In this document: positions 1 through 44,622 of the stretch, one piece after another | Layout: every line of letters begins with the position of its first letter | How positions within the stretch are numbered: position 1 is the first letter of the stretch | IMG/VR virus record: IMGVR_UViG_3300028534_000007 | DNA length: 44,622 nt | From: a virus | Direction: 5' to 3' (one strand) | Notes under the pieces: generated by a model | Told to the model about the DNA's origin: nothing | The model's database searches: none | Seen by the model: only the letters and a program-made list of their open reading frames with translations | Translations under genes and position numbers: made by a program

Positions 1-127
1 CCAACGCAAACGCCTATTTTTCGGGGGTTTACTCTATGTTGCACTAAAAAAGGTAGCCAATTTTGACACCCCCAAAATTAATATTTTATTTTTAGTGGAT
101 TTTAAGCTAAAAAAGGTAGCCAACGCA
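1..127. repeat. Left copy of the exact 127-bp terminal duplication
   Basis: Base-for-base identical to 44496-44622 on comparison by eye. Confidence 0.9.
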
Positions 128-4860: not shown

Positions 4861-5187
4861 ATGGTAAGAGATGTTCGCAAGATGATAGAAGAAAAAAAGC
4901 AAGAGCTAAACCAAAAATTAAAAGAGGTTAAGCAGATAAGAGAGGAAATCAAAGATTTAAAGTATAATACTCTTCCAACAAGAGAAGAATTAGAAGAGAT
5001 TTTTAAAACTATCGATTATGAGATGGAAGACGGGAAAAAATATATACAAAAACCCGTTACTAAGCTATGGAGAAAGGCTAAAGAGTTTTTTCCAGCTTTG
5101 ACTGCTCATGATGTTAGTAAAATTTTCCCTATACACACAAAAAATATATATTTAGAAAACAAGATAATTAGAGGAGTAGAATTATGA
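4861..5187 (+). CDS. Hypothetical protein
   Basis: 108-aa ORF with a GAAAGGG SD. Its stop overlaps the next start (ATGA). Confidence 0.55.
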   Translation: MVRDVRKMIEEKKQELNQKLKEVKQIREEIKDLKYNTLPTREELEEIFKTIDYEMEDGKKYIQKPVTKLWRKAKEFFPALTAHDVSKIFPIHTKNIYLENKIIRGVEL

Positions 5188-6524
5188 TGTTTAAAGAATT
5201 TAGTCAATTAGAAAATATAGAGTTGGTGGATTATATATCCACCCATTTCTTCAAGTATGGAAAAGATTATTTAATAGTTGATGGTAACAACCTGCTTGAA
5301 CTATCCAATGTAGATAATGCCATAGATATAGCTCTTATCTCCCTTAAAAGGCAAGGTTTTTATTTTCCACCTAAACAAGTAATCAAAGAATTAAAATTGT
5401 GTTTTGATATGAATAGACTAAAAGATATTGAGTATAAAAAAGACCCTCTAATAAAGAAAGATAGATATAAATTAGAGGGGGAAATTCTAACGGTGTATAA
5501 GCCGTTTTTGAAAGATTTTGTAAGAGAAGTATATAACAAAGAGGATAAATCCATACTTAAAGGGGCATTAAGACACTTTGATTTTCTTCCAAATTTCATA
5601 AGGATAGTCACTTTTGGAAGAATCACTACGCTTAAAAATTCTTTCATTCATTTGCTCATAGAGAGCAACTACGGAAAAAGTATGCTAATGAGTGCTTTTG
5701 AAAGCCTTGATTTGACTTATGAAATAGATAATATTGGAGAGATAAGAAGAGATAACTCTATTAGTGCTGACAAAGTAGCTAACTCACTTTTTATCTTTGA
5801 AGATGAGAGCAAGGGGCTAACAGACGAACACAAGAAAAATACTTTTAAGGTTGCTATTGCTGAAAAATTTAAAATGCGTAAGAGTATAGATGTAGGTGTA
5901 AAAGTCCTTATGAGTGCTAATAATCCTTATTCTAGTGCAAAAGATGAGCAGTTATATAATAGATTAGAACTCTTTGATTTAAGAGGAAAGGGAAAAATTG
6001 ATGACAAAGAGTTTTATAAGAAGTATGGCTATCATAGAGTTATAGATGCACTTAAAAAGTATATCAAAAATACTATATTAGATATACTAGAAGAGTTAAA
6101 AGAGCAAGAGGATATTAATATATATAGTAGAGATAAATACTTAAAGGCGATAGAAAATATAAGAGGTGGAGCAAGGAACAAAGATGAGACTAAAAAGCCT
6201 CTAAGAGATGAAATTTATGACACTTTATTAGAAAATATATCATCTTTGCTAGACAATAAAGAAAATATAGAAAAAGTGGGGCTATTACAGGATAGTATTA
6301 TTGATGTTGGAGATATAGTCTTCCTGAAGCGACCTAAAAAGACAATTGCACGGCTCTTAATGATGAGTTTTAGCTCTGATGAAGTAAAACACATGATGAG
6401 TTATTATAATGAGTTTATAGAAAGTGGGTATTGTATTGATTATAGAAATAAAGCAGTTAAGATGGGAAATATGAAAACAAAATCAAAGGGCGTTGCTCTA
6501 GCTGTTAAATCGTTTGATTTTTAA
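5184..6524 (+). CDS. Putative SF3-type (P4 alpha / D5-like) helicase-NTPase, candidate replication initiator
   Basis: Walker A-like LLIESNYGKSML, Walker B-like SLFIFEDES, then VLMSANNP (motif C Asn). Order and spacing match SF3 cores. Confidence 0.5.
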   Translation: MMFKEFSQLENIELVDYISTHFFKYGKDYLIVDGNNLLELSNVDNAIDIALISLKRQGFYFPPKQVIKELKLCFDMNRLKDIEYKKDPLIKKDRYKLEGEILTVYKPFLKDFVREVYNKEDKSILKGALRHFDFLPNFIRIVTFGRITTLKNSFIHLLIESNYGKSMLMSAFESLDLTYEIDNIGEIRRDNSISADKVANSLFIFEDESKGLTDEHKKNTFKVAIAEKFKMRKSIDVGVKVLMSANNPYSSAKDEQLYNRLELFDLRGKGKIDDKEFYKKYGYHRVIDALKKYIKNTILDILEELKEQEDINIYSRDKYLKAIENIRGGARNKDETKKPLRDEIYDTLLENISSLLDNKENIEKVGLLQDSIIDVGDIVFLKRPKKTIARLLMMSFSSDEVKHMMSYYNEFIESGYCIDYRNKAVKMGNMKTKSKGVALAVKSFDF

Positions 6525-6534
6525 GGGGAAAATT

Positions 6535-8331
6535 ATGAGATGTGAGACACTAGACACTATAAAAGTGCTTATACCAAATCAAAAACCCCTAAGAGAGCAT
6601 CAAGAGCTTATAATTAAACAATTAAATAAACTAGATAGTTTACCAAAGATAACAGTCTCTCTCTTGACAGGTGCAGGAAAGACTGTGTTATTTTTCTCTT
6701 ATATGCACCAACCACACACTATAAATAAAAGAGCTTTATTTATAGTTCCTCAAATTAATTTAGCTCAGCAGACATCAAAAAATAGAGAGGTTGGATATAT
6801 ACAGGGGAAAACAGTTAGAGGGGTAAATAAGCGTATAGTTGTAGCTAATATTCATAAGTTAATGCTACTATTAAAAGCAAACCAGATAGAGCTAAATAGA
6901 TTCGATTATATCTTTATAGATGAGGCACACAAACAAGAACCGAGAATAAAAAAACTTATAGAACGGACTAATAAGAAAGTAAGGTTTTTGACTGCTACCC
7001 CTTTTGATGGGAATGGCTATTATAAGCCCTATCTAATGGATAGGATAATCGGAGAGGAATTTAATTTTAAGTATATGATTTCTAAGGGCTATTTAGTTCC
7101 TTATAGATTTTATCAAGTAGGGGACTTAGATACTTCAGGAATAAGCAGAAATAAAGAGGGGGAATACAATGATAAAGAACTGTATGAGAGAATAAAAAAC
7201 TCTAATATAGATATAGTCAAAACCTCTCTAAAGAAGATTGACAAAAGGTTTCCAACCTTAATAACAGCACAAAACATAGCACACGCTGAAGAGCTACACA
7301 AGGAATTTAATAAGGCTGGATTTAAGTGTGGCATAATCCACTCCAAGGTGGAAGAGGATAAAGAGTGGCTACTAAAGGCTTTAGAAGATAGATACTATGA
7401 CGCCCTAATAAGCGTTAAAATGCTTATAACAGGTGTAGATATTCCCTCCATAGGTAATATAGTTTTAGCTACTAGATTTGGCTCCGTGGCTGAACTGTGG
7501 CAACAGTTAGGGAGAGGGGCAAGAGTAGCACCAAATAAGACACATTGTAACGTTATAGATTTATTTGGGAATATAAAAGAGCATGGTCACCCATACGATT
7601 TTAAACCACAGATACCAAAGAAAAAAGAGAAGAGGGCAAAAAAGTTTAATTGTCCTGAGTGTGGGAGTGGTAATCTTAAAACCTATCATACAGAAGAGAC
7701 ACAAGAAGAAATACACAGATTTAAAAAGTGTAGCGTGTGTGAGTTTGAAGATGTAGAGATAATAGCAAAAGACACTATTAAGTGTAATAAGTGTTCTTTT
7801 ATTGGAGCAGATTACAAACTACAAAAAAAAGGAATTTATTTATGGGCTGTATGTCCTGAATGTAATAACAATATAGAGGTAGTAGATACTGTATTACCTA
7901 AAAAACTTATCCAGTATTCTAGCCTTGAACATGTAATGTTTGATATTAAAACTATAAATAATAGAGTAGGAAGCCTGTTAAACAATTCTCTTTTAGAGGA
8001 GTTTTTGAGAGTTGCAGATGTTGAGCATGTAGCGTTTATATATGATGTTCTAAGCAACTATGAAAGATACACTCCTAACAGCATTAAAAAGATTGAGAAT
8101 AGAATGAAATCTTATATCTCCTCTTTTAGTAAGCAAGATAAAAAGATATTAGAAGAGTTAAACGGAGATAAAGAGGCTTTTAGATTGGCTCAAGAGTGCA
8201 TAAAAATTACTGGATATAGTCGAGTGTTTGCTAGAATCAGACAAATTAAAAGCAGAAAACTAAAAAGCAAAATGACTACAAACCTTAAAAAATATCTTAC
8301 TTATCTTAAAAACATCTCTCAAGCCTCTTGA
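6535..8331 (+). CDS. SF2 DEAD/DEAH-box helicase with two C-terminal zinc ribbons
   Basis: Motif I LLTGAGKT, II IFIDEAHK, III LTATPF, VI QQLGRGAR. CxxC pairs CPECG..CSVCE and CNKCS..CPECN. The ORF track opens at TTG 6514, but ATG 6535 has an AAGGGG SD and is preferred. Confidence 0.85.
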   Translation: MRCETLDTIKVLIPNQKPLREHQELIIKQLNKLDSLPKITVSLLTGAGKTVLFFSYMHQPHTINKRALFIVPQINLAQQTSKNREVGYIQGKTVRGVNKRIVVANIHKLMLLLKANQIELNRFDYIFIDEAHKQEPRIKKLIERTNKKVRFLTATPFDGNGYYKPYLMDRIIGEEFNFKYMISKGYLVPYRFYQVGDLDTSGISRNKEGEYNDKELYERIKNSNIDIVKTSLKKIDKRFPTLITAQNIAHAEELHKEFNKAGFKCGIIHSKVEEDKEWLLKALEDRYYDALISVKMLITGVDIPSIGNIVLATRFGSVAELWQQLGRGARVAPNKTHCNVIDLFGNIKEHGHPYDFKPQIPKKKEKRAKKFNCPECGSGNLKTYHTEETQEEIHRFKKCSVCEFEDVEIIAKDTIKCNKCSFIGADYKLQKKGIYLWAVCPECNNNIEVVDTVLPKKLIQYSSLEHVMFDIKTINNRVGSLLNNSLLEEFLRVADVEHVAFIYDVLSNYERYTPNSIKKIENRMKSYISSFSKQDKKILEELNGDKEAFRLAQECIKITGYSRVFARIRQIKSRKLKSKMTTNLKKYLTYLKNISQAS

Positions 8332-8356
8332 CATAAACAAAAATTTTAGATACAAT
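8328..8356 (+). promoter_or_regulatory. Sigma70-type promoter (TTGACA, 17 nt, TACAAT)
   Basis: TTGACA at 8328-8333 overlaps the helicase stop codon, and TACAAT is at 8351-8356. The spacer CAAAAATTTTAGA is related to the one at 4802-4818. Confidence 0.55.
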
Positions 8357-8395: not shown

Positions 8396-9178
8396 ATGAT
8401 TTATCAATCTGAAAAAACAACTTCAGTTATGAGAGCTTTAAGTAAGTTTAGAGCTAAAGGGGTAACAGTTTACGCAGAGGCAACAAGAGCAATAACTAAA
8501 ACAGATACTATCCAATATGCGGATAGAAATGCTTTGATACAAGCAATTCAAGAGCCATTAATTGAGTGTAAGTTAGAGGTAACATATAGCACAGAATACC
8601 ATGAGGGGCAAGAATTTGCAGTTGTTACCATTACACACACAACATCAGGGCAGTTTATTAAATCTTATCAAAAGCTTTTTAATGTCGAGGTAGAAAAAAA
8701 ATCTACTAAATACAGCGAGTATTTGGATTATCAAGGGGCAGTAGAGAATATCCAAAAACAGAAAACTTACTTTTTTAGAACTATGACTTTAGATATTTTA
8801 ATGATTAGCGTTATAGAAAAAGGCGAGGAGTTAAAAGCACCTCAAGACTTATCTAAAAAAGTGGAGGCAAAAGCAGAACCACAAGAGCCAACAGCACAAG
8901 AATCAGATACACAAGCAGAGCCAACAGAGCCAAAAGCAGAGCCAAGAGACATAAGAGCAAGAGCAATATTAGAGTTATATATTAGAAGTGCAAACCACGC
9001 CAATAAAACAAAGGCGAAAAAATATGCCGAAATTGTCGGTGGTAAGGAATGGGAAGAGGGGTATGTAAAACATTTAGAAAAAATAGAAAAGCTAGAGAGG
9101 GTTCTTATCAAAAATGGACTTATTTGCGATATAAAAGCGAAACAACTAAAAGGGGGTAGAAATGGTAACAGCAAGTAA
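8396..9178 (+). CDS. erf: ERF-family single-strand annealing protein
   Basis: IQYADRNALIQAIQEPLIECKLEV, then ...VVTITHTTSGQ..., then YQGAVENIQKQKTYFFRTMTLDIL. This follows the P22 Erf pattern: Y-x-Y/ADL, a beta hairpin, then G..tYarrY. A P/E/A-rich linker follows. The gene sits next to an exonuclease gene. Confidence 0.7.
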   Translation: MIYQSEKTTSVMRALSKFRAKGVTVYAEATRAITKTDTIQYADRNALIQAIQEPLIECKLEVTYSTEYHEGQEFAVVTITHTTSGQFIKSYQKLFNVEVEKKSTKYSEYLDYQGAVENIQKQKTYFFRTMTLDILMISVIEKGEELKAPQDLSKKVEAKAEPQEPTAQESDTQAEPTEPKAEPRDIRARAILELYIRSANHANKTKAKKYAEIVGGKEWEEGYVKHLEKIEKLERVLIKNGLICDIKAKQLKGGRNGNSK

Positions 9179-10043
9179 AAAGAGAGGTTATAGAGTAATC
9201 TCTAAAGATTTAGAGGTGTATCCTCTAACACTTCCTTTGATTGTAGATGATATAGATAATTTAGAGTTCCACTATAAGAAAGAGAAAGAAATTAAATCTC
9301 TCTTAGAGGCTAGTTTAAAAGACTTAAGAGATTATAAGGCTTTAGAAGAGATTAAAAGCCTTACTTTTAAAGTTTTGAACCTTGAACAAGGTGGTAATGA
9401 TTGGTTAGAGGTTAGACAAGGTTTAGCTACTGGTAGTAACTTGCCAATAGATAACAAAGGTAATCTTATTCCTACTATTAATAAGTATGTGGCAAAAAAG
9501 GCATTAGAGGTATTTCAAAATGAAATAGAGTGTGTGGAGTTGAAGCAAGAGATTAAACAAGCTCTACACATACCATACACTAAAGCGATGGAGAGAGGGC
9601 ATGTTTTAGAGCCACTTGCTAAAGAGGAATACGTTAAGTATAGAGAGGCACAAGGCGACTTGGTAGAGATTGAGCATATCGGCTTTATAAAGTCTGATAA
9701 TTTGCCATTTGGTGCAAGTCCTGACGGTGTAGCAGTGGATTTATTAACATTTGAAAGAGTGAATTTAGAGATTAAAACCACCAATATAGCAAATTTTACT
9801 AACTATATTATTGACCCTCAAAGCTTTGTAGATAATCACTATAAGCAAGTTCAAATAGAAATGTTGGTAACCCAAACAGACAAAACGCATCTCATTTGTT
9901 ATTATCCTGATTTTGATTTGATAGTTCAAGAGGTATCAATTGATTATGAATTTATTGGGAATTTTATTGAATCAATGAAAGAATACAGCGAGTTGCTAAA
10001 AATAGCTTTAAACGGTTTAAGAAAAGCATATAAAGGAAAATAA
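9162..10043 (+). CDS. YqaJ/lambda-exonuclease-like recombination exonuclease (PD-(D/E)XK)
   Basis: GGNDWLEVRQGLATGSN, ERGHVLEP, ASPDGV and LEIKT motifs in canonical order. There is an N-terminal extension of about 75 aa of unknown function. Confidence 0.8.
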   Translation: MVTASKKRGYRVISKDLEVYPLTLPLIVDDIDNLEFHYKKEKEIKSLLEASLKDLRDYKALEEIKSLTFKVLNLEQGGNDWLEVRQGLATGSNLPIDNKGNLIPTINKYVAKKALEVFQNEIECVELKQEIKQALHIPYTKAMERGHVLEPLAKEEYVKYREAQGDLVEIEHIGFIKSDNLPFGASPDGVAVDLLTFERVNLEIKTTNIANFTNYIIDPQSFVDNHYKQVQIEMLVTQTDKTHLICYYPDFDLIVQEVSIDYEFIGNFIESMKEYSELLKIALNGLRKAYKGK

Positions 10044-10844
10044 ATGTTACAACAAACTCTATTTTATAGCCCAATCAAAAGCCCACTTATTTATAGTGGC
10101 TTAAAATTTAGAATTATGAGAGAATTAGCAGACGCTTTTAAACCTGCTGATAATTTTTATGATTTGTTTGGAGGTAGTGGAACAGTAGCTATAAACGCCC
10201 TCGAAATGGGGATATATAAGAGCGTTTATATATATGAATTTAAATATGAGGTATTTGAATTATACCACCTTTTAGCAAAAGAAACAACCCAAGAGAAACT
10301 AAAAGAGGTTATAAGAGTGTTTAAGCCAACTACTAAAAAGGGTTATTTAGCACTTAGAGAGGCATATAACCAAAATAAAAACCCTCTCTTTTTACTTGCT
10401 CTACATTATCACTCTTTTAGCAATATCATTAGTTTTAATAAAAGTGGTAAATTCAATGCTCCAATAGGAAACAGAGGGTTATCAAAAGAGAAAGAGTTTT
10501 TATTGAGACATTCCGTGCCATACTTCAAGAAACTTATAAAGAGTAATAAAAGTTTTGATGAGGTAGAAATAAAAGATAATTCCTTTGTATATTTAGACCC
10601 CCATATTTTGGAACAGATGCAAGGTATAACAAAGTGGGATATGGAGTTAGAAAAAAGGCTACATATATTTATGGATAATCTACTAGATAGGGGTATTCCA
10701 TTTGTTCTTAGTAATACAGAAAGCAATTGCCCACTTATGGAGTGGATAGATAAAAGAGGATTGGAGGTAAGTTATCCAAAAATAACTTACTCTTTGGGTA
10801 AACACACAACTAAAACAAAAGAAATCTTAGTAAAGGGGTATTAA
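10044..10844 (+). CDS. dam: T4-Dam-like N6-adenine DNA methyltransferase with a non-canonical motif IV (DPHI instead of DPPY)
   Basis: Motif I FYDLFGGSGTV; LREAYNQNKNPLFLLALHYHSFSNIISFNKSGKFNAPIGNR; C-terminal LLDRGIPFVLSN. Motif IV reads FVYLDPHIL (see finding). Confidence 0.85.
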   Translation: MLQQTLFYSPIKSPLIYSGLKFRIMRELADAFKPADNFYDLFGGSGTVAINALEMGIYKSVYIYEFKYEVFELYHLLAKETTQEKLKEVIRVFKPTTKKGYLALREAYNQNKNPLFLLALHYHSFSNIISFNKSGKFNAPIGNRGLSKEKEFLLRHSVPYFKKLIKSNKSFDEVEIKDNSFVYLDPHILEQMQGITKWDMELEKRLHIFMDNLLDRGIPFVLSNTESNCPLMEWIDKRGLEVSYPKITYSLGKHTTKTKEILVKGY

Positions 10845-10863
10845 CTCTTCACTAATTTTAAAT

Positions 10864-10883
10864 GGGGCGAAATTGCCCCTTTT
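10864..10883 (+). terminator. Rho-independent terminator after the methyltransferase gene
   Basis: GGGGC, loop gaaatt, GCCCC, then TTTT. It lies 20 nt after the stop codon. Confidence 0.6.
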
Positions 10884-10953
10884 AAAAACACCCACACCCA
10901 CAATATTTAAATATCTAAAATCTAAATATTTAAGCCATTTAATTACTTGATTA

Positions 10954-10962
10954 TGATACAAT
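10954..10962 (+). promoter_or_regulatory. Possible extended -10 promoter (TGaTACAAT)
   Basis: TG-n-TACAAT lies 37 nt upstream of ATG 10999 and follows the terminator. There is no good -35. Confidence 0.3.
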
Positions 10963-10998
10963 TATGATGTAAAAACAATAAATGAAAAGGATTAAACT

Positions 10999-11841
10999 AT
11001 GCAAATTATTGCAAACAACCCATTAAAACTAAGTGATAAGCTATTAGAGGTATCTTTTGAAGATATAAATATTAAGATTGATTTAGTTTCTATTTTTGCT
11101 AACGCTAAACTATCGTTAGATAGTAAAGATTTGTATGTAGAGGTAACGGACATTTTTAAATCTAAGTATTGTAGATATAACAAATTAGATAAATGGACTA
11201 GAGGCGAGAGAACACAAAAATATCTAAATATTATGAATAATAGATTTTTTAAACACCCCAAAAGTGGGGTATTTAAAAATATAGAAAAAAGGTATCCAAA
11301 AAAGAGTTGGTTTAATGCTGAATGGTTAGACCAACCGACACCGTTAATTATTGTAAAAAGAGGGCGTTATGGTGGCACATGGTTTCATCACTCTATTTTG
11401 TTGGAGTTTTTATCTAATGTTGATATTGAAATAAGAATTGAGATTAACGAAAAAATGAGTGAGATTATATCACAAGTCCAAAGACTAACAGTATTAAGAG
11501 AGGATACTAAAACTCTATTCCACCCCTTAACAGATACAATTAAGAATATTTGGATACCAAACCAAAAGAGCGAGAACGCTAAGAAGTGGGCTTATAAACA
11601 TATACTAGATTTAGCTAACAAAAAAGCAATTGGAATGACTTCGACCCAATATAAGAAAGCATTTAATATCACAGATGAAAAAATAAAAGAAGACGGGAGA
11701 ATATCCATAAGAGACTATATGAGTGATATTGAATTGGATAGAATCAAGAGAGTTGAGGAAGATATAAACGGCTTGATTAAATATGGTGGGATTATGGATA
11801 TAGAGACTTTAACTAAAAAAATAATGGAAATGGGAGTATAA
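10999..11841 (+). CDS. KilA-N domain DNA-binding protein (Bro/antirepressor-like)
   Basis: The core RGRYGGTWFHHSILLEFLSNV resembles the conserved KilA-N block (GTWvH..la..fa.W). The C-terminal half is unknown. Confidence 0.5.
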   Translation: MQIIANNPLKLSDKLLEVSFEDINIKIDLVSIFANAKLSLDSKDLYVEVTDIFKSKYCRYNKLDKWTRGERTQKYLNIMNNRFFKHPKSGVFKNIEKRYPKKSWFNAEWLDQPTPLIIVKRGRYGGTWFHHSILLEFLSNVDIEIRIEINEKMSEIISQVQRLTVLREDTKTLFHPLTDTIKNIWIPNQKSENAKKWAYKHILDLANKKAIGMTSTQYKKAFNITDEKIKEDGRISIRDYMSDIELDRIKRVEEDINGLIKYGGIMDIETLTKKIMEMGV

Positions 11842-11844
11842 AAA

Positions 11845-12822
11845 ATGAGTGAGACAAAAAGCAAAAAGTTTAAAACAGTTATAGAACCACTAACACAAAG
11901 AGCAAAGAGTTATCTCTTTAAAAGAGGTGTAAAAGACATAGATAACCTAGAAGTTAAGAGTAGTTTCGTAGTTAAGATTGATACCAACTTCAAGATTATG
12001 GATAGCGAGAGGGTAGCATTTCCCATATATACACCAAACTTAAAGCTAGTTGGATATAGTGCAAGGGCTATAATAGATAATCCTGATTATCCCAAGTATT
12101 TTATAGATGAGGGGATAGATAAGAATTATCACTTATTTGGTGCAGAACAATTAAAAGATAATCCAGAAAAGATTATATTAGTTGAGGGGCAAATTGATAG
12201 TATTTTAGCTAGACAAAATCTAAAAGTTCCCTCTTTAGCTGTATTAGGGAGTGATTTATCAGAAGAACATGCTAAGCTACTCAAAAAGCACGGAGTAAAA
12301 AAGGTTCTCATCATTGGAGATAATGACAAAGCAGGGCGAAAATTCATGTTAGAGAGTGGAAAAGTCTTAATAGAAAACGATATATACCCTCAAATGGGGT
12401 TTTTAAGAGATAAGAGTAAAAACGATTTAGGAGACTTAAAAAGCTTTAAGTGGAAAGATATAGAGGTTAAGAATTATTGGCAATATATAGCAGACACTTT
12501 TTTAAATAGAGAGAGATTTAATATCCACCAAATAGAAAAAAACTTAAAGAGATTAGAAAAAGTTAATTGGTATGGAATGGATATAAACACCTTTTTAAAA
12601 AACAAATACTTTTTGTATTCAGTTAAAATTATTGATGATGTGATGCGTAGAATAGAGGATATTTTAGTTAATATTAAAACTTCTAAAGAAAACAGAAACC
12701 CAAAACTTAGCAATATATATCTACAAACAGAACCAAAAGACATAAAAGATAATCATTTGGACTTTTTACTACAACTAATGGAAACCTTAGAGATTAGAAA
12801 GGAAATTTTAAATGGAAAATAA
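11845..12822 (+). CDS. DnaG-type DNA primase (catalytic core + TOPRIM, no zinc-binding domain)
   Basis: FPIYTPNLKLVGYSARAI, YPKYFIDEG..YHLFG, TOPRIM ILVEGQIDS and IIGDNDKAGRK. There is no N-terminal CxxC/CxxH motif. Confidence 0.85.
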   Translation: MSETKSKKFKTVIEPLTQRAKSYLFKRGVKDIDNLEVKSSFVVKIDTNFKIMDSERVAFPIYTPNLKLVGYSARAIIDNPDYPKYFIDEGIDKNYHLFGAEQLKDNPEKIILVEGQIDSILARQNLKVPSLAVLGSDLSEEHAKLLKKHGVKKVLIIGDNDKAGRKFMLESGKVLIENDIYPQMGFLRDKSKNDLGDLKSFKWKDIEVKNYWQYIADTFLNRERFNIHQIEKNLKRLEKVNWYGMDINTFLKNKYFLYSVKIIDDVMRRIEDILVNIKTSKENRNPKLSNIYLQTEPKDIKDNHLDFLLQLMETLEIRKEILNGK

Positions 12823-24650: not shown

Positions 24651-26414
24651 TTACAAATCAAGCTGAACTCTTGCCATTATTTCAGCTCTAAACCATACGC
24701 CGTCAATATCTCTTGGGTTGCCATAGGTTACATTTTTGCTCTCTGGAACTTCAAAGATTAAGAAATCAACATCTTTGTTATTCTCTATTTTAGAGAAAGT
24801 AGGATAAAAAGGAATAGCGTTTGGGTTTGCTGGAATAGTGTAATAGGCTACCCCAACAAACCAAGTATCTAGTAATGTTGTAATTGGGGTAAAGTCCCCT
24901 AATATCCCTTTTAAATCTAAATTTACTTTTGTTAAATCTGTGCTTGGTATTTGCTCGTTTAGATTTTTTACTCTAAATTGTAAGTTAATAAAAGCCATCT
25001 CCCCTTGCACATCTACGATAAGGCTGAATGGGTCTATATTTCCCCCACCTTTATAGTCTCCTCCTACTATGGTTACATCGTTTTCAAATGCACTAGGTAA
25101 AGGAGTGTAGTCTTTTACATATCTACTTATCCCCTGAATTATCTTCTTTCTGTCGTCTGTCCCTGCTTTGTGTGCAAATCCTTTTAATTCTGCTATTAAA
25201 TTATTATCTCTATATACTTCAAAAAAGGTTGAAGAATTGTTGAAAGTTATACAATCATCAGTATCAGTCCCTAGATTGATACACTTTTTAAAATGTGCTT
25301 TCTCTTCAAAAGTTGATGTGGCTTTCACTGTTAGAGTGTCACTATCTGCATCACCTAGTGTGGTATTTCCCTGAACCTCTAAATCTTTTTCAAAAGTCCC
25401 TTTTTCTTTAGCTTGCAGGGTTCCGTTTATCAGCGTGTTATCTGTTGGGCTATCACCTAAAGTTGTATTCCCATCAGCAGTTAAAGCACCCTCTATATAT
25501 ACATTCTTTTTAGCTGTTACATTTTCATTAAAAGTAGATACGCCTTTTACAATAATAGAGTCTGTGTTATCACTTCCAAGATTCACATTTCCTTGTAAGT
25601 CTGTATCCCCTTGAACTTCAAGCCCTTTTTCTGCTGTCATATCCTCTTTAAAAGTAGAGGTAGCTTTTACGGTTAGTGTATCTGTGCTATCTTCTCCAAG
25701 TGTTGTATTATCTGCAACACTTAGGTTATTCCCAACACTTAACCCTTTTTCTGCTGTCATATCCTCTTTAAAAGTAGAGGTAGCTTTTACGGTTAGTGTA
25801 TCTGTGCTATCTTCTCCAAGTGTTGTATTGTCTTTTATAGTTAGGTTTTGGGCTTCAATATCTTTAAATTGTGGAGTTCCATTGAAAATTATTTTATCGC
25901 TTGTTTCATTTCCTAATACAACATCACCATTTACATATAAATCTTTTTTTAGTTCTGTGTCCTCTTCAGCAACTAAAACCCCTTTTACTCTGATTGTGTC
26001 GGCGTCTGTATCTCCTAAAAAAGTATCGCCATTTAGTTTAGTTACTCCATCAACTGTTAAGTTTTTATCTGCTTGAATATCCTCTTTAAAGGCTGAAGTC
26101 CCTTTTATTTCTATGGTGTCGGATGAGTCGTCACCTAGTGTAGTGTTACCATTGACTAGCAAATTACTATCTGCTGTTAAATTCCCTTTAACTGTTGCAT
26201 TGCCATCTAAAGATGTATCATTAGTAACCTTTAAAGTGTCAAGTGTAGTTAATTTAGTAGCCTCATCAAAACTAGCTATAATCTCTCCATCTTGTGTGAG
26301 TATTTGAGTTTGCTTATTGTCTCCTGCTTTTATTGTTACATTACAATCTGCACACTCTAAAGAACTACTACCTTTCCCTATTAATTGCTCATAATCTCTA
26401 TTTTCTAGACTCAT
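24651..26414 (-). CDS. Repeat-rich fibre/spike-like protein (about nine 40-aa beta-rich repeats plus a C-terminal globular domain)
   Basis: 587 aa. The repeat consensus is GNTTLGDDSxDTLTVKGTSTFKEDxTAxKNLxV. Its start overlaps the holin stop (ATGA). Confidence 0.65.
   Translation of the reverse strand: MSLENRDYEQLIGKGSSSLECADCNVTIKAGDNKQTQILTQDGEIIASFDEATKLTTLDTLKVTNDTSLDGNATVKGNLTADSNLLVNGNTTLGDDSSDTIEIKGTSAFKEDIQADKNLTVDGVTKLNGDTFLGDTDADTIRVKGVLVAEEDTELKKDLYVNGDVVLGNETSDKIIFNGTPQFKDIEAQNLTIKDNTTLGEDSTDTLTVKATSTFKEDMTAEKGLSVGNNLSVADNTTLGEDSTDTLTVKATSTFKEDMTAEKGLEVQGDTDLQGNVNLGSDNTDSIIVKGVSTFNENVTAKKNVYIEGALTADGNTTLGDSPTDNTLINGTLQAKEKGTFEKDLEVQGNTTLGDADSDTLTVKATSTFEEKAHFKKCINLGTDTDDCITFNNSSTFFEVYRDNNLIAELKGFAHKAGTDDRKKIIQGISRYVKDYTPLPSAFENDVTIVGGDYKGGGNIDPFSLIVDVQGEMAFINLQFRVKNLNEQIPSTDLTKVNLDLKGILGDFTPITTLLDTWFVGVAYYTIPANPNAIPFYPTFSKIENNKDVDFLIFEVPESKNVTYGNPRDIDGVWFRAEIMARVQLDL
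25623..25829. repeat. Exact 87-bp direct repeat with a 120-bp period inside the fibre gene
   Basis: 25623-25709 is identical to 25743-25829. Both copies encode NTTLGEDSTDTLTVKATSTFKEDMTAEKGL. Confidence 0.9.
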
Positions 26415-44220: not shown

Positions 44221-44622
44221 GAAAAAGTAGCCAGAGAACCCAAAAAGGTAGCCACTTTTTTCAAAAAGGTAGCCAACGCAAACGCCTATTTTTCGGGGGG
44301 CTTAATGGGGTAGCTACTTTTTTGAGCTAAAAAAAGGTAACCAGAGAACCAAAAAAAGTAGCCACGGCACAAAAAAAAGGTAGCCAATTCCAAATCTTAA
44401 ACGAAATAATTAATTTTTAGCCACTTTTCTTAAACTTTTAAACTAATTTGCCCCTTAGCTACCTTTTTGGCTACTTTTCTGAAAAAAAAAGGTAGCCAAC
44501 GCAAACGCCTATTTTTCGGGGGTTTACTCTATGTTGCACTAAAAAAGGTAGCCAATTTTGACACCCCCAAAATTAATATTTTATTTTTAGTGGATTTTAA
44601 GCTAAAAAAGGTAGCCAACGCA
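44221..44622. repeat. Iteron field, left half: AAAA(A)GGTAGCCA 12-mers in both orientations plus 37-nt long units
   Basis: Forward copies near 44222, 44242, 44263, 44329 (GGTAACCA variant), 44351, 44371 and 44482. Inverted copies near 44311, 44457 and 44469. Long units at 44263-44300 and 44486-44522. The 45-nt block 44242-44286 is identical to 241-285. Confidence 0.85.
44496..44622. repeat. Right copy of the exact 127-bp terminal duplication
   Basis: Identical to 1-127. Confidence 0.9.

Follow-up and report, generated by a model that had tools for sequence, protein, structure and literature searches.

Does the Dam-like open reading frame at 10044..10844 (+) of the viral record IMGVR_UViG_3300028534_000007 encode a methyltransferase, and if not, how has its reading frame remained open? 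The whole of this 44,622-nt stretch is referred to here as the window, and L001, L002 and L006 denote contigs of its relatives. The ORF reads as a full-length homologue of the T4-Dam/D12 class of N6-adenine DNA methyltransferases, and has DPHILEQMQGITKW at the position where 171 of 182 aligned sequences carry DPPY. The original prediction held that motif IV had been swapped by a compensated double frameshift, and offered paired homopolymer sequencing errors, a genuinely dead enzyme and slipped-strand on/off switching as explanations. From the comparisons described below, the gene very likely descends from a T4-Dam-type adenine methyltransferase and has become catalytically inactive.

Gene, family and fold

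The ORF is open over 266 codons, as had been predicted, and its ATG directly abuts the stop codon of an upstream YqaJ-like exonuclease gene (9162–10043). Together with an unknown ORF of 260 aa, these two genes make up the block 8396–10844, upstream of which lies a promoter-like site (TTGACA, 17-nt spacer, TACAAT; 8328..8356, +) recognized from its consensus match alone (11/12). On the 3′ side of the Dam-like gene, a terminator-like hairpin (GGGGCG-AAAU-UGCCCC followed by UUUU; 10856..10887, +) has a minimum free energy of −14.9 kcal/mol and a z-score of −4.9; it was missed by a simple terminator scan.

The product matches Pfam PF02086 (MethyltransfD12) with 68.4 bits, against a gathering cut-off of 22, over residues 17–236 and profile positions 1–240 of 253, and the score rises to 84.0 bits when the frame is repaired as originally proposed. 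Motif I, the AdoMet-binding FxGxG, is intact as DLFGGSG (residues 40–46; 10161..10181, +), its F42 and G44 being invariant in a 32-sequence alignment of the family. The AF2 model of the window protein (pLDDT 91.7, pTM 0.89), which leans towards the family fold because this same alignment was its input, displays a Rossmann-like catalytic domain with an inserted DNA-recognition domain, as expected of a Dam fold. A Foldseek comparison of the model placed the T4Dam structures 1yf3 and 1yfl first (TM ~0.8; 0.81, E 1e-20), with EcoDam and DpnM ranking next.

The lesion in motif IV

Around the site in question the ORF reads FVYLD-PHILEQMQGITK-WDMELEK, with codons 185–198 encoding D-P-H-I-L-E-Q-M-Q-G-I-T-K-W. 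The alternative frame pointed out in the original prediction does read P-Y-F-G-T-D-A-R-Y-N-K from 10601, and the two runs that it named are present, C5 at 10598–10602 and AAA at 10631–10633 followed by G10634. Two relatives, L002 (JGI 3300037333, also in IMG/VR) and L006 (JGI 3300005095), carry an intact allele at this site, GAC CCC CCA TAT TTT GGA ACA GAT GCA AAG TAT AAC AAA GAG TGG, which corresponds to DPPYFGTDAKYNKEW. Both encode ten of the 11 hidden residues in frame, in nearly identical DNA, and the hidden-frame match thus lies far beyond chance. The T4 Dam context given in the original prediction is also correct, since T4 Dam has DPPYLITVADYNKFW and aligns without gaps to the intact allele.

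Polarized by L002 and L006, the window allele differs from the ancestral one by two deletions located 36 nt apart, each at a micro-repeat. The first is a 1-nt deletion in the C run (10598..10602, +; gene column 555), which is C6 in L002 and L006, C5 in the window and CCACC in L001. The second is a 2-nt deletion at 10634/10635 (junction at 10633..10636, +; gap columns 593–594 of the gene alignment), where the ancestral AAAGAGTGG has become AAAGTGG through the loss of one unit of an (AG)2 repeat (AGAG to AG). Neither indel is a multiple of three, and together they amount to a net loss of 3 nt, by which the frame is regained and the product, relative to the intact protein of 267 aa, is shortened by one residue. 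Set directly beside the intact sister alleles, the window thus bears out the predicted swap of motif IV by a compensated double frameshift, while the detail of its second half has to be corrected: what had been taken for a base gained in the A run is the loss of 2 nt from AGAG, and the pair is −1/−2, not −1/+1.

Between the two lesions, a 33-nt segment (10602..10634, +) is read out of the ancestral frame, so that HILEQMQGITK (residues 187–197) replaces PYFGTDA(K/R)YNKE. Of the 12 ancestral residues ten are changed and one, the Glu, is deleted; a Lys persists by coincidence. Immediately before this segment, D185 and P186 (GAC CCC; 10596..10601, +) persist as the remnant of motif IV, both in columns that are invariant in the 32-sequence alignment. 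The rewritten segment corresponds to the active-site loop between strand 180–184 and helix 200–215, and in the AF2 model the ten-residue block 191–200, which falls within the rewritten loop, shows the clearest dip in confidence besides the chain termini (average pLDDT of 65, with most other blocks above 90).

The third relative, L001 (JGI 3300048635), which shares 96% identity with the window along 10.7 kb, shows the lesion in its uncompensated state. It carries the −1 deletion alone, in the context GA-CCACC-ATAT, and has AGAGAT at the second site, where the ancestral length is kept. The reading frame of its gene ends at codon 203, and the gene caller divided the gene into ORFs of 202 and 67 aa. 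As a separate observation on gene calling, the JGI call of the intact L002 allele (6266–7069; P0001, 243 aa) starts at Met25, and the ORF extends a further 72 nt upstream to an ATG common to the window, L001 and L006, giving 267 aa.

The clade comprises four known members after the searches undertaken here. Only two close protein clusters were found by protein search, and the three relatives with DNA were obtained from the cluster listing and contig look-ups. Scanning for the exact DNA pattern returned only the L002 contig again from viral_contigs and nothing from metagenome_contigs, and protein-guided scans of viral_contigs, metagenome_contigs and genome_contigs yielded no new relatives. Megablast of positions 9000–12000 against GenBank phages gave no match, and tblastn against GenBank phages gave only Dam genes of <36% identity.

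The significance of the lesion depends on how strictly motif IV is conserved. In the first alignment, of 32 sequences, DPPY is kept in all 31 homologues aligned with the window protein. A HMMER search of 1.84 billion cluster representatives contributed 148 further proteins, and in the resulting set of 182 aligned sequences DPPY occurs in 171, a single substitution in eight (the variants being DPPC, DLPY, DSPY, DPPR, DCPY and DIPY), and one is a fragment without the region. The second Pro and the aromatic residue are both lost in the window and in L001 only, which have DPHI and DHHI, respectively, in place of the consensus (D/N/S)PP(Y/F/W). Homologues that naturally carry DPHI, which had been proposed as a finding that would speak for an unimpaired enzyme, are thus absent from the 182 sequences outside the window, and the alignments offer no evidence to suggest that motif IV is dispensable in this family.

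Translation of the window allele still yields motif I, the DNA-recognition hairpin region and the C-terminal portion of the catalytic domain and, judging from the model, the product probably still folds. However, motif IV has lost its second Pro and its aromatic residue, and the conserved Tyr-Asn of the loop that follows is gone as well, from which we infer that the protein would be unable to transfer methyl groups. An importance of the Pro and the Tyr of DPPY for catalysis is indicated by their conservation, and the published mutants change the Asp, which is retained in the window. Replacement of this Asp by Ala serves as the catalytically dead control for EcoDam and CcrM (PMC9895073), and the same change in the motif abolishes the activity of Hia5, Nme1821 and Hin1523 (PMC3299994).

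The window protein therefore resembles T4 Dam (PDB entries 1yfj, 1yfl and 1q0s) and the PF02086 class, including EcoDam and DpnM, in length, domain order and fold. It shares the motif I signature FGGSG with T4 Dam, to which the intact sister allele is ~35% identical and gap-free across DPPY-x5-YNK-x-W. In contrast to T4 Dam and EcoDam, the window has DPHI, an unrelated loop and a Ser in place of the GATC-reading Arg. The protein would accordingly be a T4-Dam homologue by descent that is not expected to be an enzyme, and of the three explanations initially offered that of a genuinely dead enzyme gains support from the rewriting of the DPPY loop relative to intact sisters and the family at large.

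Origin of the compensated allele

Both lesions may have arisen by replication slippage at micro-repeats, and the −1 deletion is likely to have preceded the −2 deletion, since L001 shows exactly the −1 uncompensated state with its 202-aa truncation. Within the gene, the window and L001 differ at 42 positions, 38 of which are concentrated at gene nt 339–594, with a single difference at nt 595–801. The cluster includes synonymous switches between AGY and TCN serine codons, and upstream of the lesion the changes are mostly at third positions; it looks like patches imported by recombination from diverged functional alleles, as far as the substitution pattern allows one to judge, rather than decay in place. 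Given such recombination-like patches at nt 339–594, the −1 deletion in the window and in L001 may reflect either common descent or two origins at the same Pro-Pro codons. The dN/dS of 0.19 for the N-terminal part, window versus L001, was also considered as a sign of constraint after inactivation and was rejected as such, given that 38 of the 42 differences are clustered in imported patches.

We think that the ORF is most likely to be a recently dead gene whose frame was repaired by chance or by weakly selected repair, and that a new functional protein is less likely. On the latter reading, selection would have restored the frame because the dead full-length protein was itself useful, for example as a sequence-specific DNA-binding or an AdoMet-binding protein, in which case it might mask sites, regulate transcription or form part of a complex. 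The frame entered after the −1 deletion stays open for 18 codons, and upstream of the deletion the alternative frames run into a stop within ≤21 nt, which leaves ~70 nt in which a compensating indel would be tolerated. With an intergenic indel density of 2 per ~1 kb between the window and L001, and assuming that one third of indels fall in the right phase, the neutral chance of such compensation is ~0.02–0.05, a crude estimate that rests on two intergenic indels. This low value hints at selection for a full-length product. The retention of motif I and of the overall fold is also in keeping with an exapted protein, as is the state of the window branch, which shows no change in the loop segment beyond the deletion and no further decay of the C-terminus, in contrast to six loop substitutions on the L001 branch (gene nt 558–590), which include YNK to YCR in the ancestral frame. 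For EcoDam, a role as a repressor that does not depend on methylation has been proposed (PMC4417163).

Other observations weigh against exaptation, which we consider to be an unlikely outcome on the sequence evidence. L001 is uncompensated and altered at conserved residues, not only in YNK but also at the position of T4 Pro126, where it has a Ser, and the protein is thus dispensable in a 96%-identical phage. The compensated allele occurs in one genome only, and the C-terminal 200 nt differ from L001 by 1 nt, which implies that essentially no time has elapsed. The low N-terminal dN/dS is accounted for by the imported patches, and restoration of the frame may have been favoured for other reasons, such as the avoidance of a misfolded fragment or of transcriptional polarity. 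If exaptation were nonetheless true, the pseudoenzyme might have a part in regulation or in protecting those few target sites that are left, and L001 would represent a costly intermediate. At the Pro126 position, the dam-h mutation of T4 is P126S.

It is far less probable that both indels are sequencing or assembly errors and that the real phage has an intact DPPY enzyme. The positions of the lesions, the first inside a C run and the second adjoining an A run, are what such errors at homopolymers would produce, and this was the reading put first in the original prediction. The window sequence is, however, supported at the level of independent assemblies and of a relative. A contig in the Logan assembly of SRR8439170 is 100% identical over the 3,521 nt fetched and encodes an identical 266-aa protein, and the −1 deletion recurs in L001, from another JGI sample, in the non-homopolymer context CCACC. 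The 2 nt missing at the second lesion come from AGAG and do not amount to an error in homopolymer length, and two independent errors that jointly preserve the frame would be an improbable coincidence. Furthermore, the window and L001 differ over 10.7 kb by six indels, of which two are intergenic, three are in-frame 3-nt coding indels and one is the 2-nt indel of the Dam-like gene, the sole out-of-frame coding indel between the two. The identical Logan assembly, the −1 deletion of L001 and the 3-nt length of all other coding indels together render sequencing error unlikely.

Least probable of all is a phase-variable or recoded gene in which slippage at the C run, at the level of DNA, RNA or the ribosome, toggles or partly restores an active methylase: some bacteria are known to use homopolymer tracts within their methylase genes as switches and the lesion sits exactly in a C run, but the tract is only 5 nt long and is interrupted by an A in L001 (CCACC), the zero frame GAC CCC CAT offers no X XXY YYZ slippery heptamer, and although a +C or −1 slip in the window would restore DPPYFGTDARYNK, the net change would then be −2 and a stop would follow ~27 codons on. 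A regained C6 would break the frame again, such that the 2-nt deletion locks the window in its present state. Phase variation and programmed frameshifting were rejected on these grounds of tract length, missing heptamer and truncation after a single shift, and with them the on/off switching of the original prediction. The gene resembles the methyltransferase genes of phasevarions in that a change in the length of a short repeat disrupts a methylase ORF, and differs from them in that its tract is C5, is locked by a second deletion and shows no sign of reversible switching; a change in tract length alone would not toggle between an intact active ORF and a broken one.

Inactivation by paired frameshifts thus remains the preferred reading, and as such the lesion is a tidy and ordinary case that calls for no new mechanism. 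As in the compensatory frameshift pairs that have been surveyed, a short segment of protein is replaced while the DNA stays nearly wild type. The surveyed pairs are found mostly where conservation is poor and towards the ends of genes (Biba et al., 2022, PMC8935012; Park & Hahn, 2021, PMC8127213), whereas the pair in the window spans the most conserved catalytic motif of its family, with loss of function as the consequence. Unlike in the surveyed pairs, the uncompensated intermediate is preserved in a sister genome, L001.

Genome context, target specificity and significance

The first and last 127 nt of the window (1–127 and 44496–44622) are 100% identical, an overlap that marks a circularly closed assembly (k-mer overlap) and hence the complete 44,495-bp genome of a T7-like podovirus, which encodes a T7-type terminase, connector, scaffold, capsid and tail tube. 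Four copies of a repeat of ~62 nt, with the core AAAAAGGTAGCCAACGCAAACGCCTATTTTTCGGGGG, flank the assembly junction (85–146, 237–298, 44238–44299 and 44461–44522), two of them being 100% identical, and may serve the T7-like genome as terminal repeats, origins or promoters. Elsewhere, a 105-nt direct repeat occurs three times (100%, 94% and 60% identity; 25623–26165) within the ORF 24651–26414 (−), whose product of 587 aa has a bactofilin-like (β-helix) Pfam match and probably functions as a tail fibre or spike of repetitive structure. Divergence from L001 is uneven along the genome: the KilA-N-domain ORF at 10999–11841 is 17.6% diverged, its neighbouring genes 0–5%, and the stretches 1010–2579 and 4861–5187 show no substitutions, which indicates strong mosaicism between the two phages.

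The Dam-like gene is the single methylase gene detected in this genome. No other real ORF of the window contains a (D/N/S)PP(Y/F/W/H) motif, and no second methylase domain was found in the 30 ORFs scanned against Pfam, a set that leaves out the four largest structural ORFs and the small ones. The genome is at the same time poor in GATC, with seven sites observed and ~132 expected. Other palindromes are likewise depleted (observed/expected: GTAC, 0/72; GGCC, 0/42; GCGC, 0/32; CCGG, 1/11; ACGT, 15/58), while CATG, TGCA, AATT and TTAA are near expectation. L001 and L002 share this pattern of avoidance, L002 having no GATC in 14 kb. GATC depletion is a classical observation in T7-type phages, and the window, a T7-like podovirus with seven GATC in 44.5 kb, is like them in this respect; it is unlike them in that depletion extends to GTAC, GGCC, GCGC and CCGG and in that its clade carries, or carried, a Dam-type gene of its own. 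Such avoidance is indicative of a host rich in Type II restriction systems. The sample that yielded L006 (IMG 3300005095) is a metagenome from a deep-sea hydrothermal vent sulfide chimney (PMC7329443), which, together with a GC content of 33.5%, tentatively suggests a low-GC vent-dwelling host, for example a member of the Campylobacterota.

In a genome that is almost free of GATC, the loss of the methylase is plausibly tolerated, as a GATC methylase would have almost nothing to protect; the phage would evade restriction by purging target sites rather than by methylating them. This argument is weakened by the residue that reads the target. The codon for S130 (10431..10433, +) lies at the position of EcoDam R124 and T4Dam R116, where Arg is found in 156 of the 182 aligned sequences; the window has Ser, L002 and L006 have Asn and L001 has Asp, so that the GATC-reading Arg is missing across the clade, intact alleles included. 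In EcoDam, no contact with the G:C pair of GATC is more discriminating than that of R124, and specificity is relaxed when this Arg is changed to Ala (PMC4417163). Specificity may consequently be relaxed or altered in the intact sister enzymes as well, with a target perhaps broader than GATC.

For the annotation of such genomes the locus carries a lesson, since a full-length, Dam-scoring ORF that would be counted as an active methyltransferase is almost certainly inactive, and a compensated frameshift conceals the loss of function from ORF-based and HMM-based pipelines alike. The four genomes form a natural series, from the intact allele (two contigs) through the −1 deletion alone (one contig) to −1 plus −2 (the window), and as such illustrate well, for teaching purposes, how a segment of a protein is rewritten by paired frameshifts. 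For the phages themselves, the finding suggests that self-methylation becomes dispensable, or even costly, in a lineage that purges restriction sites from its genome.
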